Assembly (NCBI GenBank): GCA_019119895.1 | Contig: DWWD01000021.1 | Span: 11,789-75,788 of the forward strand | Source of the DNA: Candidatus Anaerostipes avistercoris | GTDB taxonomy: Bacteria > Bacillota > Clostridia > Lachnospirales > Lachnospiraceae | Length of the DNA: 64,000 bases | Direction of reading: 5' to 3' | Part shown: positions 39,266 to 49,691 of the stretch, one piece after another | How the letters are laid out: the number at the start of each line of letters is the position of its first letter | Numbering within the stretch: the stretch's first letter is position 1 | Notes under the pieces: generated by a model | Database searches by the model: none | What the model was told of the DNA's origin: nothing | Seen by the model: only the letters and a program-made list of their open reading frames with translations | Made by a program: the position numbers and the translations under genes

Positions 39266-39880
39266 TTATTTCAGAATGTAGGATTTTATAATTCCTCCCA
39301 CCGGATTATAAGACAATGTCTTGTCATAAAACCGGATCAGTTCATCCAGTTTGGAAGCCGCGAATTTCTGAAGAATATCCACAGAAGTAATATGAGCGAT
39401 GATATCCATTTTGGAAAAAACCATCTGATACAGTTCTTCTCCGGCGGTAAAGAAAAGATCCGTATCAAGGCCAATGCGCTCTGCGTAGTAATGATAGCCA
39501 ATCTGATGACGTTCCAGAATATATTCGCCGGCACGGATTTTGCGGCCAATCAGGAAATGAATCGGTTCCTGATTGGAAGGGTCAGAACTCATTTTGACCA
39601 GAAGTCTTTGGAAAAATTCAGTATCCAGGGTTTGTTTTGACTGCAGATAGCCGTAGACGAAATCTTCAATGTTTACTTTTTGAGGAAACAGGCGGTTGGG
39701 ATTCTGCATCATAATCTGGTTGGCTCCGCAGGTAACAGCAACGCCGTTGGAAAACGGAAAAAGTTTCTGGGGCTGCCGGCCTGGATCTTCGACATATTTT
39801 CCATTTTCTCTGATAGATCCTTTTGAATCTGCAACGGCGGCAAGTCCGTCTTTGGCTTTGAAAATACCGATAAATGACAT
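39266..39880 (-). CDS. hypothetical protein with proteasome-beta/Ntn-hydrolase-like motif layout
   Basis: 204 aa from ATG 39880 (GAGGAA RBS). Starts MSFIGIFKAKDGLAAVADSK; contains QKLF and CGA; ends NPVGGIIKSYIL. The ORF is solid; the fold call is inferred. Confidence 0.6.
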   Translation of the reverse strand: MSFIGIFKAKDGLAAVADSKGSIRENGKYVEDPGRQPQKLFPFSNGVAVTCGANQIMMQNPNRLFPQKVNIEDFVYGYLQSKQTLDTEFFQRLLVKMSSDPSNQEPIHFLIGRKIRAGEYILERHQIGYHYYAERIGLDTDLFFTAGEELYQMVFSKMDIIAHITSVDILQKFAASKLDELIRFYDKTLSYNPVGGIIKSYILK

Positions 39881-40100
39881 TTCAGATTCCTCATTTCTTT
39901 TATATTCTATGAAATTATACAATGAGAATATTTTTGGCGCAAGTTTTCGCTGCCAGTATATAGCTTCTGTTTTTTTGTCTGGCTATATCGCAGGGAACAT
40001 AGGCGCAAATGATGATGAAACTTAAAAAAGTGAAAGGAAGCGATGATAATTTGCGTATTTTCTGAAAAATGTATAAAATAACCAAAAAAATCCAAAAATA

Positions 40101-40129
40101 TTGAAAAAATATGTAAAAAATGTTACAAT
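40101..40129 (+). promoter_or_regulatory. sigma-A promoter of the crotonase-family/CoA-transferase operon
   Basis: TTGAAA-17 bp-TACAAT with TGn extension, AT-rich upstream region. Confidence 0.75.
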
Positions 40130-40214: not shown

Positions 40215-41009
40215 ATGGAGCTTCAAAAATTGCAGTATACCGTAGAAGACGGTGTCGGAATTATTGCGATGTACTATCCCCAAAATTTGAATGCAATTGA
40301 TGAACAAATGGCGGATGAATTGTTGTATGTGGTAGATGCCTGTGAAAACGATCCAGAGGTAAAAGTCGTCGTGATGAAAGGAATGCCGAAGGCTTTTTCT
40401 GCAGGAGGTGATATTGGATATTTTTATGATATCATCCAGCAGGGCGGTGAAGTCAACATGGATTCATTATTTGACAAGGTCGGCAATGTAACAAATGGGT
40501 TAAAGCGTATGAGTAAACTTGTTATTGCACAGGTAAGCGGAGCGGCGGCCGGAGCAGGGGTCAGCCTTGCCTTTTCTGCGGATTTTGTCGTATGCGCGGA
40601 CAATGCAAAGTTTATCATGGCATTTGTTAATCTTGGACTGGTGCCGGATACAGGGGGTACATATTTGCTTGTGAAGAGTCTTGGCGCCCAACGGGCGATG
40701 GAACTATGCGCGACAGGACGCCCGCTGAAAGCTCAGGAGGCGAAAGATGCAGGAATTGTCTATGATGTGGTGGCTGCGGACGAACTGGATGAGACAGTTA
40801 TGAAACTGGCGAAAAAATTTGCGGCAGGACCTCTTCTTTCTTACAAAAATATCAAGAAGCAGATTTATCAGGCAAGCTTCTATGATTATAAAAAATATCT
40901 GGATGAATGTGAGATTCCGACACAAAGCGAATGCGCCGCGTCAAAAGACTTTATCGAAGGCGTCAAGGCATTTATGGAAAAACGAAGGGCAGAATTTAAA
41001 GGTGAATGA
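40215..41009 (+). CDS. crotonase-superfamily enzyme, PaaG-like enoyl-CoA isomerase
   Basis: FSAGGD, AAGAG, AKFIMAFVNLGLVPDTGGTYLL, EGVKAFMEKR. Confidence 0.88.
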   Translation: MELQKLQYTVEDGVGIIAMYYPQNLNAIDEQMADELLYVVDACENDPEVKVVVMKGMPKAFSAGGDIGYFYDIIQQGGEVNMDSLFDKVGNVTNGLKRMSKLVIAQVSGAAAGAGVSLAFSADFVVCADNAKFIMAFVNLGLVPDTGGTYLLVKSLGAQRAMELCATGRPLKAQEAKDAGIVYDVVAADELDETVMKLAKKFAAGPLLSYKNIKKQIYQASFYDYKKYLDECEIPTQSECAASKDFIEGVKAFMEKRRAEFKGE

Positions 41010-41062
41010 TACAATGTTGAAAGAATTTCAGGTTCCTTCAAGGTGAAGGAATGTGAGGAGGG

Positions 41063-41788
41063 ATGTCATTGAAATCAAAGGTAGTAACAAGAGAGGAAGC
41101 TCTTGAGAAGATCCACAGCGGTCAGACCATTATGTTTGGAGACTGGCATGGAGAATTTTCCGCGGAAGAAATTATCAGCGGTATGCTGGAAAAAGGCGTA
41201 ACAGATATCGACGCGATCGCAGTGTCTGCCGGTATGCCGGACCAGGGTCTCGGACGCCTGATCAATGAAAGAAGGGTGAAGAGCCTGATCACAACCCATA
41301 TTGGTTTGAATCCGGTAGCGCGGGATCAGATGTTTGCAGGAGAACTGGAAATAGAATTCAGTCCGCAGGGTACATTTGCAGAAAGGATTCGATGCGGAGG
41401 CGCGGGACTCGGAGGATGTCTGACACCAACCGGCATCGGGACGGACGTGGAAAAAGGCAAAGAGAAGCTCACGATCAATGGAAAAGAATATCTGCTGGAA
41501 CTGCCGCTTCGTGCTGATGTGGCGCTGATCAAGGCGACGAAAGCTGATACGGCAGGAAATATTTCTTTCAGAATGAACTCAAGGGCCACGAACAGTACGA
41601 TGGCGATGGCGGCTGACTGGGTTATAGCAGAAGTAGAAGAGATCGTAGAAGTTGGAGAATTGGGACCGGAAGAGATTGATGTTCCGGCACCTGTAATCGA
41701 CATGGTCTATGAGAGGACCGGAGAGAAGAGGTATCTGTGTCCGATGTGGCAGAAGTTAAAGGCAAAAGCGGAAGGGGGCAAGGCATAA
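41063..41788 (+). CDS. class I CoA-transferase subunit A (AtoD/ScoA-like, divergent)
   Basis: ITTHIG.NP, PQGTFAERIRCGGAGLGG.LTPTG.GT, ADVALIKA. Start may be TTG 41069. Confidence 0.88.
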   Translation: MSLKSKVVTREEALEKIHSGQTIMFGDWHGEFSAEEIISGMLEKGVTDIDAIAVSAGMPDQGLGRLINERRVKSLITTHIGLNPVARDQMFAGELEIEFSPQGTFAERIRCGGAGLGGCLTPTGIGTDVEKGKEKLTINGKEYLLELPLRADVALIKATKADTAGNISFRMNSRATNSTMAMAADWVIAEVEEIVEVGELGPEEIDVPAPVIDMVYERTGEKRYLCPMWQKLKAKAEGGKA

Positions 41789-42447
41789 TGGCGGAATTGA
41801 AAGGACGTAAATTAATTGCATCTCGCTGCGCAAAGTTTTTCAAAGATGGAGATTTTGTCAATCTTGGGATTGGTCTTCCACTGATGTGTGTAAATTATCT
41901 GCCGGAAGGCGTAGATCTCTGGCTGGAAGCGGAGATTGGGACTGTAGGCAGTGGAGCGACTCCGAAATGGGGAGAAGAAGATATTGATGTCATTGATGCG
42001 GGAGGACAGCCAGCTTCTGTGATTAAGGGCGGCAGTGTATGTGACCATGAGACTTCTTTTGCCTATATCAGAGGCGGACATATCGATGCGGCAGTGCTGG
42101 GAACTTTACAGGTAGACGAAGAAGGAAATATCGCTAATTGGACCATTCCTGGGAAACTGGTTCCTGGAATGGGTGGAGCGATGGATTTGTGTGCGGGAGT
42201 CAAGCGTATCATCGTTGCTACAGATCACTGTGAAAAAAGTGGAAGATCTAAAATATTAAAAAAATGTACGCTGCCGCTGACCGGTGTCAAATGTGTGACG
42301 GATATCGTGACGGAGAAATGTTATTTCCAGGTAGGTTCGGACGGACTGATTCTCAGGGAACTGGCGCCTGGATATACTGTGGAAGATGTTCTGGCAAGCA
42401 CGGAAGCAAAGGTAATTATACCGGACGAGATTGGCGTAATGGAATAA
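41788..42447 (+). CDS. class I CoA-transferase subunit B (AtoA/ScoB-like)
   Basis: VNLGIGLP, AEIG (catalytic Glu position), RGGHID...LG..QVD..G.IANW, GMGGAMDL. TAATG coupling to subunit A. Confidence 0.9.
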   Translation: MAELKGRKLIASRCAKFFKDGDFVNLGIGLPLMCVNYLPEGVDLWLEAEIGTVGSGATPKWGEEDIDVIDAGGQPASVIKGGSVCDHETSFAYIRGGHIDAAVLGTLQVDEEGNIANWTIPGKLVPGMGGAMDLCAGVKRIIVATDHCEKSGRSKILKKCTLPLTGVKCVTDIVTEKCYFQVGSDGLILRELAPGYTVEDVLASTEAKVIIPDEIGVME

Positions 42448-42467
42448 GCAAAATCATAAAAAGCCTG

Positions 42468-42502
42468 AAAACCTGTGGGAGAAAATTTTCCTGCAGGTTT
42501 TT
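42468..42502 (+). terminator. intrinsic terminator
   Basis: AAAACCTGTGGGA...TCCTGCAGGTTTT followed by a T-run. Confidence 0.65.
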
Positions 42503-42622
42503 TAAGAATTCGGTCTGGGAGAGAATGGTATTTTCTGTAAAAGATTCGCTTTACGAAGCCGCAGCTTGATGTTATACTAAAATCCGTCGAAATAATTGAA
42601 AAAATAAGAATGGGAGATAAGA

Positions 42623-45792: not shown

Positions 45793-46542
45793 ATGGAAGT
45801 ACATGAAATATTGGAAAAAGTGAAAGAAGGGGCCATGTCTGTGGAGGAAGCACAGCGGTATCTCCAGAGGCAGCCTTTTGAGGAATTAGGATATGCAAAA
45901 CTGGACACCCAGAGAAAAATCCGCTCCGGATTTGCGGAGGTGATTTTCTGCAGCGGGAAAGCAGATGAGCATCTAAAGCAGATTGTCGGACGGCTGTATG
46001 AGGAAGAAGGAGAGGTGTTCGGAACAAGAGCCACAAAAGCGCAGTATGAAATGCTGAAAAAAGCATATCCGAAAATTGAGTATGATGAGATTTCCCATAT
46101 TATAAAAATAGAGAAAAAAGATAAGGAAAAAATCGGGGAAATTGCCGTGTGCACCGCCGGCACCGCGGATATTTCTGTGGCGGAAGAAGCGGCGCAGACC
46201 GCGGAATATTTCGGCTCCCGGGTGGAGCGGATCTATGATGTGGGAGTCAGCGGCCTGCACCGTCTGCTGGCCAGACTGGATACGATTCAGAGTGCTAACT
46301 GCGTCATTGCAATCGCCGGTATGGAAGGTGCTCTGGCAAGCGTTATCGGCGGACTGGTGGACAAGCCGGTGATCGCAGTGCCTACTTCCGTGGGATACGG
46401 TGCCAACATGAATGGACTGTCAGCACTCCTAACTATGATCAACTCCTGTGCCAACGGCATTGCGGTGGTCAATATTGACAATGGTTACGGAGCGGGTTAC
46501 ATAGCGACACAGATTAATAGATTGGGGGTAAGACATGAATAA
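45793..46542 (+). CDS. larB: nickel-pincer cofactor biosynthesis carboxylase/hydrolase LarB
   Basis: AKLDTQR..R.GFAEVIF..GK, AGTADI.VAEEA, DVGVSGLHRL, AGMEGAL, PTSVGYG, VNIDNGYGA. Confidence 0.95.
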   Translation: MEVHEILEKVKEGAMSVEEAQRYLQRQPFEELGYAKLDTQRKIRSGFAEVIFCSGKADEHLKQIVGRLYEEEGEVFGTRATKAQYEMLKKAYPKIEYDEISHIIKIEKKDKEKIGEIAVCTAGTADISVAEEAAQTAEYFGSRVERIYDVGVSGLHRLLARLDTIQSANCVIAIAGMEGALASVIGGLVDKPVIAVPTSVGYGANMNGLSALLTMINSCANGIAVVNIDNGYGAGYIATQINRLGVRHE

Positions 46543-47878
46543 AACATTGTATCTGGAATGCTGCAGCGGAATCAGCGGCGATATGTTTGTCGGCGCAATG
46601 CTGGATCTCGGCGCAGACCAGGAGGGATTGAAAGAAGTCCTCAAAAGTCTTCCTGCAGACGGATTTGAGATCAAAATAACGAAGAAAAAGAAAGCAGGGC
46701 TTGTGGGATGTGATTTTGATGTGGTTCTGGATCAGGAACATGAAAATCACGATCATGATATGGAGTATCTTCACGGTCATGACCCTGAATTCCAAAAATC
46801 CCATCATCATGAACATGGAGAGGAGAGCCATCATCACAGCCACGGACATGACCATCATGATCATGAGCATCACGGGCATCATCACCATCATCACGGGGAA
46901 CATTCCCACGAACACAGAGGACTGGCAGATGTGCTGGAAATCATAAATCAGTCCGGATTAAATGAACACGCAAAGAAAACCGCTTCTGATATATTTCATA
47001 TTATCGCGGAAGCGGAGGCAAAGGCTCACGGTGAACCGATAGATCAGGTGCATTTTCACGAGGTGGGCGCCGTTGATTCCATTGCAGATATCTGTGCGGC
47101 GGCATACTGCCTGGACAATCTGGAGATTGAGGAAGTCATTGTTCCGGAGTTATATGAAGGAAGCGGCACGGTCCGCTGTCAGCACGGAGTGATTCCGGTT
47201 CCGGTTCCTGCCGTGACGCATATTGCGGCGGATCATCATCTGTCACTTCGCATGACAGGAGTCAGAGGAGAATTGGTGACGCCGACCGGAGCGGCCATTG
47301 CGGCTGCCATCCGTACGTCCGAACATCTTCCTGAGAAGTTCAGGATCATAAAAACGGGAATCGGTACGGGAAAACGGGATTATGAATGTCCTGGAATTTT
47401 AAGAGCCATGCTGATTAAGCCGGAGACCGGGAAACAGGATGAAATCTGGAAACTGGAAAGCAACATGGATGACTGCAGCGGAGAGGTGTTTGGAAACCTT
47501 ATGGAAACATTGTTCCGGGCGGGAGCCAGAGATGTCCACTATTTCCCTGTTTATATGAAGAAAAACCGTCCGGCGTATCAGTTAAACGTCATTTGCGATG
47601 AAGAAAAAATACCGAAACTGGAAGAGGTGATTTTCCGGGAGACAACGACCATAGGAATCCGCCGTGTCAGAATGAAACGAACCGTACTGAAACGAAGAGA
47701 AGAGGAAATCAGAGGTTGGTTTGGCACAGCGAAGGTAAAGGTATGCAGTCTTCCGGCAGGCGAGCGGGCTTATCCGGAATATGAGAGTGTAAAGACCATA
47801 AGTCAGGAACAGGGGATCTCTTACATGGATGCTTATTATGAGGTTGTGGAAGCCTGGAAAGAGCAGAAAAAGTCATGA
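46535..47878 (+). CDS. larC: nickel insertase LarC
   Basis: SGISGDM..GA, His-rich insert, VHFHEVGAVDSIAD, ELVTPTGAAI, ESNMDD, MKKNRP, RETTTIGIR, PEYES. Confidence 0.95.
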   Translation: MNKTLYLECCSGISGDMFVGAMLDLGADQEGLKEVLKSLPADGFEIKITKKKKAGLVGCDFDVVLDQEHENHDHDMEYLHGHDPEFQKSHHHEHGEESHHHSHGHDHHDHEHHGHHHHHHGEHSHEHRGLADVLEIINQSGLNEHAKKTASDIFHIIAEAEAKAHGEPIDQVHFHEVGAVDSIADICAAAYCLDNLEIEEVIVPELYEGSGTVRCQHGVIPVPVPAVTHIAADHHLSLRMTGVRGELVTPTGAAIAAAIRTSEHLPEKFRIIKTGIGTGKRDYECPGILRAMLIKPETGKQDEIWKLESNMDDCSGEVFGNLMETLFRAGARDVHYFPVYMKKNRPAYQLNVICDEEKIPKLEEVIFRETTTIGIRRVRMKRTVLKRREEEIRGWFGTAKVKVCSLPAGERAYPEYESVKTISQEQGISYMDAYYEVVEAWKEQKKS

Positions 47879-48702
47879 ATAAATATATAAAACTCAGAGA
47901 ACAGATGGAACAGTTTGCGGCCGCTGATGTTGTGGTGGCATTTTCCGGCGGCGTGGACAGCAGTCTCCTGCTGAAAATGGCCTGTGAGGCGGCAGAAAAG
48001 ACCGGGAAAAAGGTTTACGCCGCCGTCGTTCATACTATGCTCCATCCGGCAGGAGAACTGGAGGCGGCAAAAGAAGCGGCAGCCAAAATGGGGGCGGAGC
48101 CATGTGCTCTGTACATCGATGAATTAAAAGAAGCCGGTATTGAAAACAATCCGGAAGACCGCTGCTACCGCTGTAAAAAACATCTGTTTCAGAAAATCAG
48201 AGAACTGGCGTCCGAAAAAGGGACTTCTGTTATACTGGAAGGGACCAATGAGGATGATCTTCATGTTTACCGTCCGGGAATCCGGGCAGTCCGGGAACTG
48301 AAAATTTATAGTCCCCTGGCGGATGCGGGCTTTTCAAAAGAGGAAGTCCGTGCCCTGGCGGGAGAATACGGTCTGGAAGCTTCTTCCAAGCCGTCCATGC
48401 CGTGTCTGGCCACCAGATTTCCATATGGAGCCAGACTGACTTATGACAAACTGCATCAGGCAGACCAGGGGGAAATTTTTTTAAGAAATCTCGGATTTAA
48501 AAATGTCAGGATCCGGGTCTATGGCGACCTGGTCCGGCTGGAAATAGATAAAGAAGAGATGGGAGGTCTGATTGCTCAGAAAGAGAAAATTATTGAATAT
48601 TTAAAGAAATTAGGATATTCCTATATTACACTGGACCTGGAAGGATTCCGGTCCGGCAGCATGGATATCCATATTAATCAGGAAAAAGAAGGGAGAAAGT
48701 AA
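47875..48702 (+). CDS. larE: ATP-dependent sulfur transferase LarE
   Basis: PP-loop FSGGVDS, RCYRCK, RPG..A, SPL, PCLATRFPYG, GFRSGSM. Confidence 0.95.
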   Translation: MNKYIKLREQMEQFAAADVVVAFSGGVDSSLLLKMACEAAEKTGKKVYAAVVHTMLHPAGELEAAKEAAAKMGAEPCALYIDELKEAGIENNPEDRCYRCKKHLFQKIRELASEKGTSVILEGTNEDDLHVYRPGIRAVRELKIYSPLADAGFSKEEVRALAGEYGLEASSKPSMPCLATRFPYGARLTYDKLHQADQGEIFLRNLGFKNVRIRVYGDLVRLEIDKEEMGGLIAQKEKIIEYLKKLGYSYITLDLEGFRSGSMDIHINQEKEGRK

Positions 48703-48704
48703 TT

Positions 48705-49691
48705 ATGCATATGGCAGATGCGCTGGTAGCGCCGGCAGTTGCAGGCACGATGTATGTATGCTCTGCGGCGGCAATGACGTATTCAATCAAAAAAGTACAT
48801 CTGGAGACAGATACAAAAAAAATTCCGGTCATGGGAGTCATGGGAGCCTTTGTTTTCGCGGCACAGATGATCAACTTTACCATTCCGGGCACAGGTTCCT
48901 CAGGACATTTGTGCGGCGGTATGATGCTGTCTGCGATTCTTGGGCCTTATGCGGGATTCCTGACGATGGTCGGCGTCCTGCTGGTACAATGTCTGCTTTT
49001 TGCGGACGGAGGACTTCTGGCTCTGGGAGCCAATGTATGGAACATGGCGTTTTACGGATGCTTTATTGGAGGACTGGTCCTGTGGAAAATGATCATGAGG
49101 AATGGAATGTCAAAAAAGAAAATCACGGCGGCATCGATTATCGGATGTATTCTGACGCTGCAGCTGGGGGCTTTTTCTGTCACACTGGAAACTCTGGCGT
49201 CCGGGATCACGGAACTTCCGTTTGCTGTTTTTGTGGGGACCATGCAACCAATCCATCTTGCGATCGGATTAGTTGAAGGCATGATCACAGCGGCAGTACT
49301 CTGTTTTATTTATGATGCCAGACCGGAACTGCTGTGGATGCATCAGGAAACAGAAGAAGGACGGCTCTCTTACAAGGGAACTGTAGGTGCCCTGGCATGT
49401 GCCACTGCAGTGATCGGAGGATTATTGTCTCTGGCCGCTTCTTCAAATCCGGACGGGCTGGAATGGTCCATGGAAAGGGTAGCAGGAACAGCAGAACTGC
49501 CGGCATCCGGAGCGGTGCAGCAGGCAGCGCAGAGAATACAGGAATTTACGGCGCTTCTTCCTGATTATGCACTGAAAGGATCAGACAGCGCCGCAGGAAC
49601 ATCCATTTCAGGAATTGTCGGAGCTCTGATTGTTGCGGCATTATGTATTTTGGCCTGCGCCTTTGTAAGGAAAAGGAAGAAAGTGAAGTAG
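48705..49691 (+). CDS. Ni/Co ECF transporter substrate component, CbiM/NikM fused to PDGLE (NikN) domain
   Basis: N-terminal MHMADA metal-binding motif, GSSGHL.GG, ALGAN, C-terminal ASSNPDGLEW. Confidence 0.9.
   Translation: MHMADALVAPAVAGTMYVCSAAAMTYSIKKVHLETDTKKIPVMGVMGAFVFAAQMINFTIPGTGSSGHLCGGMMLSAILGPYAGFLTMVGVLLVQCLLFADGGLLALGANVWNMAFYGCFIGGLVLWKMIMRNGMSKKKITAASIIGCILTLQLGAFSVTLETLASGITELPFAVFVGTMQPIHLAIGLVEGMITAAVLCFIYDARPELLWMHQETEEGRLSYKGTVGALACATAVIGGLLSLAASSNPDGLEWSMERVAGTAELPASGAVQQAAQRIQEFTALLPDYALKGSDSAAGTSISGIVGALIVAALCILACAFVRKRKKVK

Follow-up and report, generated by a model that had tools for sequence, protein, structure and literature searches.

Described relatives and a conserved three-gene cassette

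Fermenting anaerobes possess enoate-reduction modules (of the acrylate, crotonate, cinnamate and isocaprenoate types) that consist of a coenzyme A (CoA)-transferase and an acyl-CoA dehydrogenase with its electron-transfer flavoprotein (ETF); these modules activate the acid, reduce it with ETF and recycle the CoA. Two-subunit family I CoA-transferases are represented by AtoDA and CtfAB, and crotonase-fold enzymes with a single catalytic Asp by FabM, the streptococcal trans-2-decenoyl-ACP isomerase (ACP, acyl carrier protein; NF050134), and by PaaG of Escherichia coli (b1394) and Thermus thermophilus (3HRX/6SL9), which also carries out delta3-delta2 isomerisation. In T. thermophilus PaaG, D136 acts as a proton shuttle between C2 and C4 (PMC7497051). 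Within the genus Anaerostipes, a CoA-transferase is paired with a crotonase in the OxcT-EcdH-AcaD inositol-to-propionate cluster (PMC8355322). Here, we analysed a three-gene operon of Candidatus Anaerostipes avistercoris, located at positions 40,215 to 42,447 of a 64,000-nucleotide stretch of contig DWWD01000021.1 (the whole stretch is called the window), in which a single-Asp crotonase precedes the two subunits of a family I CoA-transferase. The comparison showed that this cassette is an orthologous module, real, conserved and so far uncharacterised, that combines enzymes of known classes, and it is best read as working like an isomerase-plus-CoA-transferase feeder into enoyl-CoA reduction. 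Its genes are the following:

40215..41009, + strand: single-Asp crotonase, probable delta3,delta2-enoyl-CoA isomerase (PF00378; D145 equivalent to PaaG D136)
41063..41788, + strand: family I CoA-transferase subunit A (TIGR02429), with a remodelled acid pocket (D27, W28, H29, V54) according to pocket mapping
41788..42447, + strand: family I CoA-transferase subunit B (TIGR02428), with catalytic E49 according to alignment with AtoA/CtfB

The operon proposed in a preliminary description of this DNA, and all the motifs quoted there, were found in place, in the form of three open reading frames of 264, 241 and 219 aa on the + strand, with the ATG of subunit B overlapping the stop codon of subunit A; the operon GC content (0.47 vs 0.44 for the genome) is unremarkable. 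In 69/69 genome loci with enough sequence, the crotonase gene was the immediate upstream neighbour of subunit A, subunit B followed subunit A in all 65 genome loci where sequence exists, and subunit A was found downstream in 76/76 metagenome crotonase loci, mostly near-copies. The genes flanking the cassette differ almost everywhere. Among 1.8 billion representatives the family is sharply delimited: its full-length members show identities of at least 56%, and the next proteins no more than 50%. The cassette is present in 13 of 20 Anaerostipes genomes, and none turned up in the 399 other Clostridia sampled; it has further hosts in Megasphaera (including M. elsdenii), Anaeroglobus, Coprococcus catus, Intestinimonas, Frisingicoccus, Eubacterium barkeri, Sporolactobacillus and Fusobacterium, and recurs in many human gut metagenome assemblies. 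In Fusobacterium nucleatum the orthologous cassette is FN0271-FN0273 (70, 74 and 83% identity, gene order kept), the crotonase ortholog AAL94477 (264 aa) matching FN0271. No plasmid copy above 60% identity was found. The cassette tree departs from taxonomy and suggests spread by transfer.

Active sites of the crotonase and the CoA-transferase

Crotonase D145, which is invariant in the family, aligns with D136 of T. thermophilus PaaG, and the two hydratase glutamates (GGGxE and PE) are not present, Ser and Phe standing there as in PaaG and FabM. The missing glutamates, the PaaG-type Asp and the E. coli PaaG motif had been correctly given in the preliminary description. The special closeness to PaaG claimed alongside them did not hold: the D145-type Asp motif is also found in FabM and in ~25 unnamed relatives, the best NCBIfam match is FabM, and the tree places the crotonase on the FabM side. 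The crotonase was below all equivalog cut-offs among its best NCBIfam matches (FabM NF050134, 226/400 bits; PRK07260, 217/335 bits; PaaG TIGR02280, 182/345 bits), true FabM members scoring 415-467 bits on NF050134, and it shares 34% of its residues with E. coli PaaG and 34-35% with FabM. In the maximum-likelihood tree the cassette crotonases formed one clade (100/98), which joined FabM and unnamed proteins at 95/90, apart from PaaG, a placement to be taken with caution given several long branches. The phylogeny and neighbourhood check that had been proposed thus returned a conserved three-gene linkage and a crotonase clade of its own, and no grouping with PaaG.

With FabM, the nearest named clade, the crotonase has in common the fold, the GGD oxyanion loop and the single Asp in G(L/V)xPDxGG; it differs in its location outside a fab cluster, its constant CoA-transferase partner and a family-invariant GYFY lid region. 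With PaaG it shares the position of the Asp and the missing Glu pair; it differs in the replacement of Gln61 by Gly, in having no Tyr aligned near the Tyr80 lid, and in a host without paa genes, since the PaaA/C family (PF05138) gave 0 matches in this 100%-complete genome; the preliminary description had already noted that the operon has no paa epoxidase genes. The predicted model was a confident crotonase fold (predicted local distance difference test score, 93), and the fold search returned generic crotonases only (28-35% identity), with no solved family member among them. A sister-clade relative (44% identity) lies inside a complete beta-oxidation operon encoding a CoA-transferase, a fused hydroxyacyl-CoA dehydrogenase, a thiolase and an acyl-CoA dehydrogenase, a setting where an auxiliary isomerase is expected. 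By the sequence tests run, the crotonase is a member of neither PaaG nor FabM proper, and it probably belongs to the delta3,delta2-enoyl-CoA isomerase class, which fits both its active-site pattern and the beta-oxidation context of the sister clade.

Both transferase subunits passed their family cut-offs (subunit A on TIGR02429, 184 vs 128.5 bits; subunit B on TIGR02428, 304 vs 243.6 bits) and are 46-50% identical to AtoD/AtoA; subunit A remained under the AtoD equivalog NF007394 (238 vs 315 bits). E49 of subunit B, the catalytic Glu previously said to be retained, aligns with E46 of AtoA/CtfB. The acid-pocket residues were mapped onto T. melanesiensis CtfAB, where the PS01723 signature G-G-F-x3-G-x-P and N50 form the acetate pocket and position 25 of CtfA varies with substrate, family I CoA-transferases being promiscuous (PMC12400318). 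The layout and catalytic residues of AtoDA/CtfAB are kept: the CtfAB Glu, Q98, H75 and N22 correspond to E49 (B), Q102 (A), H79 and N25 (B), and the CoA-site motifs are also retained. In contrast, the acetate-contact residues are swapped (F24 to W28, L25 to H29 and N50 to V54) and D27 is new. These positions are conserved in the family (D27, H29 and V54 in 67/67 members each, W28 in 65/67), and in the 19 outgroup sequences D27, H29 and V54 are absent or nearly so. Hardly any family member departs from the GD-W-H-G change, and at the positions that contact acetate the PS01723 signature is disrupted in virtually every one.

The divergence of subunit A noted before is therefore a family-wide property. 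Of the two motifs cited for it, GDWHGEFS and RMNSRATNS, both are present in this protein; the second is not conserved in the family, apart from the loss of its Asn (A175 in 66/67). Further pocket-linked residues are D70/H87 of subunit B; subunit A has a family-specific 20-residue C-terminal extension, and the CoA-transferase family sits on a long stem branch in the tree. With the machinery intact and the acetate-contact residues replaced, CoA transfer is expected with another preferred acid, and by the tests run the transferase, which departs from AtoDA/CtfAB in its acetate contacts, D27 and C-terminal extension, is not AtoDA proper.

Probable links to enoyl-CoA reduction and the surroundings of the operon

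Several Oscillospiraceae-type genomes carry a long form of the operon, dehydrogenase-(EtfB-EtfA)-crotonase-SatP-type permease-A-B-coaD, which has the layout of the enoate-reduction modules; the cassette differs from those modules in having a single-Asp crotonase instead of a dehydratase and, in its short form, in lacking a reductase. The dehydrogenases encoded within the operon are a group apart (70-78% mutual identity, ~40% to Bcd) with the catalytic Glu kept. A relative of these enzymes (64% identity) lies in an operon of a dehydrogenase, ETF and a family III CoA-transferase without a crotonase, the arrangement of a minimal enoate-reduction unit. The butyrate marker Hbd was found in 41/50 non-Anaerostipes cassette hosts vs 37/199 background Clostridia, counts that overstate significance and would inflate any p-value, since the hosts are related and many are incomplete metagenome-assembled genomes. 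The dedicated dehydrogenase (at least 70% identity) was present in only 3 of these 50 hosts, all without Hbd and without an enzyme >46% identical to Bcd, and Bcd-like enzymes (50-64% identity) were found in 5/6 of the other Hbd-negative hosts. This complementarity is the pattern expected if the cassette product needs an enoyl-CoA reductase. The activate-isomerise-reduce logic of the preliminary description thus gained support for its reduction step from the long form and from the distribution complementary to the butyrate pathway. An ancestral long form and particular directions of transfer were also considered; they are not established, as the backbone of the rooted concatenated tree has 31-71% support.

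Near the long form, usually divergent, lie a GntR-DRTGG-CBS (SpxR-like) regulator and a second dehydrogenase-like gene, which abut or overlap at L284:7176-9648, L279:15003-17429, L081, L085 and L090. The L085 dehydrogenase-like copy has Asn at the catalytic Glu position and may be a sensor partner, not an enzyme. A coaD-like gene recurs beside the long form in L078, L090, L279 and L284.

The host genome contains thl-crt-hbd-bcd-etfB-etfA and only one other acyl-CoA dehydrogenase. On contig C43 (29585-32361) it encodes a 4-hydroxybutyryl-CoA dehydratase (AbfD-type) and a 4Hbt-type CoA-transferase; AbfD itself interconverts vinylacetyl-CoA, so that a cassette role confined to C4 acids would be partly redundant in this genome. 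Contig C24 (14352-29639) carries a shikimate/quinate dehydrogenase, a dehydroquinate dehydratase, transporters and two flavin enoate-reductase-type genes, a cluster possibly involved in hydroaromatic acid reduction. An OxcT-type cluster on contig C49 (80699-91012) comprises a dehydrogenase, a hydratase, a 515-aa CoA-transferase, ETF and two alcohol dehydrogenases, and adjoins an MFS transporter and a phosphonatase-like HAD hydrolase. Identity of the cassette with the inositol-to-propionate OxcT cluster (PMC8355322) was rejected: the genes are different, OxcT being a single gene that clusters with propionate CoA-transferases, and the likely counterpart is that on C49, with its 515-aa transferase and two-Glu hydratase. 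The host fab cluster lies on another contig than the cassette, with fabH sited outside it, and fatty acid synthesis is complete without the cassette (FabH and FabV were found). FabK was missing from all 20 Anaerostipes genomes searched, and FabK and FabV were mutually exclusive across 41 genomes searched (in the host, C49:99607-106814 and C36:15453-16151). The cassette as a filler of a gap in fatty acid synthesis was likewise rejected, as all 20 Anaerostipes genomes, seven of them without the cassette, carry FabV/Ter and FabH.

Signals around the operon were as follows:

40101..40129, + strand: candidate sigma-70-type promoter, TTGAAA-17-TACAAT with an extended -10 TG, a 10/12 consensus match only
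41027..41057, + strand: intergenic RNA hairpin (-15.9 kcal/mol, z -3.73, 0/200 shuffles)
42467..42503, + strand: intrinsic-terminator-like hairpin with a U-run at its end (-20.5 kcal/mol, z -4.26, 0/200 shuffles)

The operon had been credited with its own promoter and terminator. The terminator is real by folding against 200 shuffles, a simple terminator scanner having made no call there; the promoter stands as a consensus match of modest weight, given that 15 promoter-type sites were found vs 8.4 expected in shuffles. The intergenic hairpin touches the ribosome-binding site of the subunit A gene. Across 72 cassette upstream regions, neither a Rex-like nor another shared operator showed an excess over shuffles. 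Upstream of the cassette, positions 39266-39922 (-) encode a protein of ~204-218 aa with no Pfam or NCBIfam match, whose look-alikes in the atlas are hypothetical proteins, some viral and a few with weak proteasome-fold labels; a gene of this type lies downstream of the cassette in loci L031, L032 and L275. Further downstream in the window (45793-49691, +), genes resembling larB, larC, larE and cbiM (nickel-pincer cofactor synthesis, metal uptake) were recognised by eye.

Candidate substrates and the published labels

In the reading that we favour, to which we give a probability of roughly 0.55, a short 3-enoic acid would be CoA-activated, isomerised and then reduced via Bcd/Etf. The substrate would be a monocarboxylate that is short (~C4-C6) and beta,gamma-unsaturated; 3-butenoate, 3-pentenoate, 3-hexenoate and methyl-branched analogues are examples. 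The A/B transferase would move CoA from an acyl-CoA via E49 onto this acid, a transfer that is ordinary family I CoA-transferase chemistry. D145, as the single Asp, would then shuttle a proton between C2 and C4 to yield the 2-enoyl-CoA, which, as the comparative genomics suggests, an acyl-CoA dehydrogenase/ETF would reduce: in this genome the housekeeping Bcd/EtfAB of the butyrate operon, and in hosts without a butyrate pathway the dedicated dehydrogenase within the cassette operon. The saturated acyl-CoA would donate its CoA to the next acid, and the acid would serve as an electron sink or be disproportionated through crt/hbd/thl. The isomerase step is supported by the two named relatives, PaaG and FabM, each of which moves double bonds between the C2 and C3 positions. 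The reading is also favoured by the two ordinary hydratases and the But transferase encoded elsewhere in the genome. The SatP-type permease and the reliance on Bcd suggest that the acid is small, and the cyclic or aromatic substrate proposed in the preliminary description gained no added support.

Several observations weigh against this 3-enoate reading, besides the overstated co-occurrence counts. The single-Asp motif is also known in crotonases with hydrolase or dehalogenase chemistry. A purely hydrocarbon tail would not call for the invariant Asp27/His29 pair, which may point to a polar substrate or to additional chemistry. At the position preceding the catalytic Glu, the Tyr of Bcd is replaced by Met, Ala or Gly in the in-operon dehydrogenases; this hints at a branched substrate to which Bcd may be ill-suited, and for which branched-chain dehydrogenases offer a precedent. 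No paper linking the cassette to any acid was found in the open-access literature, and we know of no established abundant gut source of 3-enoate. We therefore also entertain, tentatively and at clearly lower odds, an undescribed gut route, common to widespread Anaerostipes, Megasphaera and F. nucleatum, in which a polar acid (dietary, host-derived or self-generated) would be CoA-activated via the new Asp-His pocket and converted by the single-Asp crotonase into a Bcd/Etf substrate, by a reaction new for its clade, namely an elimination, or the isomerisation of a dicarboxylate such as itaconate.

A rival proposal keeps the same flow into Bcd/Etf, and fits the dehydrogenase/ETF linkage equally well, with a polar or 3-substituted short acid (a 3-thio, 3-nitro or 3-amino acid, a 4-oxo/4-hydroxy acid, or a crotonyl/acryloyl-CoA damage adduct) on which D145 would act as single base for elimination, tautomerisation or hydrolysis to crotonyl- or acryloyl-CoA. 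The invariant D27 and H29, the loss of N50 from the pocket and D70/H87 of subunit B speak for it, and detoxification or repair would be a fitting role for a cassette that stands alone, looks constitutive and has no conserved operator; we nevertheless consider it unlikely, since the nearest named relatives are isomerases, the sister-clade member lies in a beta-oxidation operon, no amino-acid transporter or deaminase is conserved near the cassette, and SatP-type permeases carry small anions. A cationic (amino or betaine) substrate, to which the acidic pocket residues had drawn attention, was downgraded in view of the SatP-type permease and the lack of recurring amine genes. Isomerisation of a dicarboxylic or cyclic ester appears improbable. 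Here the reaction would be itaconyl- to mesaconyl-CoA, or, in quinate/shikimate reduction, cyclohex-2-ene- to cyclohex-1-enecarboxyl-CoA, an isomerisation of the ChcB-like kind. A self-contained two-enzyme itaconyl/mesaconyl cycle would explain a stand-alone cassette, a distal carboxylate could be bound by His29, a small residue takes the Tyr position in the dedicated dehydrogenase, and the host has the shikimate/quinate-type cluster with flavin enoate reductases. Yet the substrate helix of that dehydrogenase shows no evident conserved basic residue, scores fall well short of the cut-offs for cyclohexanecarboxyl-CoA and glutaryl-CoA dehydrogenases, and a strong tie to Hbd/Bcd hosts is not predicted.

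The two remaining explanations coincide with labels given to the F. nucleatum orthologs. FN0272/FN0273 are described in a review as an acetoacetate:butyryl-CoA transferase (PMC12288474), and the corresponding reading of the cassette, an acetoacetate/butyrate CoA-transferase with an enoyl-CoA hydratase, agrees with the identity to AtoD/AtoA and with the TIGR02428/02429 scores; some acetate/butyrate activity is indeed likely from the promiscuity of family I enzymes (PMC12400318). We regard it as quite improbable as the main role, because the hydratase glutamates are absent, PS01723 is broken and the AtoD equivalog was missed, because Crt, But and OxcT-type genes are sited elsewhere in the genome, and because genome G003 carries both the cassette and canonical AtoD. 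FN0271, in turn, has been named FnFabM on 31% identity together with correlative qPCR (quantitative PCR) and cerulenin (FabF inhibitor) data, its acid induction correlating with C22:1, and the passages on FnFabM seen from that paper contain neither a mutant nor an enzyme assay (PMC11753016). A role like that of FabM in making unsaturated fatty acids (trans-2 to cis-3-decenoyl-ACP) accords with the best NCBIfam match and the FabM grouping in the tree; it seems to us the least probable of these explanations, given a score of 226 bits against a cut-off of 400, 34-35% identity, the invariable tie to a CoA-transferase, the lack of the cassette in 7/19 congeners, and a host whose fatty acid synthesis is complete without it. 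In the loci read, the cassette was not beside fab genes, and one true FabM sits with fabT-fabH, although fab neighbours at 1/3 true FabM loci make such a location itself a variable criterion.

FN0272/FN0273 carry the remodelled pocket, and no biochemistry on any cassette family member was found in the open-access literature, which misses most subscription papers. As far as the parts of the two sources seen allow, the FnFabM and acetoacetate:butyrate transferase labels rest on homology or correlation and look wrong. This casts doubt on the view that FN0271 underlies acid resistance by producing unsaturated fatty acids, and on FN0272/FN0273 as the terminal butyrate transferase, and butyrate surveys based on annotation may miscount the cassette transferase clade as Ato. 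The chemistry of the cassette most likely lies within known classes, which limits the surprise to be expected; for the biology of its hosts, the cassette predicts that there is a so far unrecognised acid which butyrate producers are able to detoxify or to exploit as an electron acceptor.

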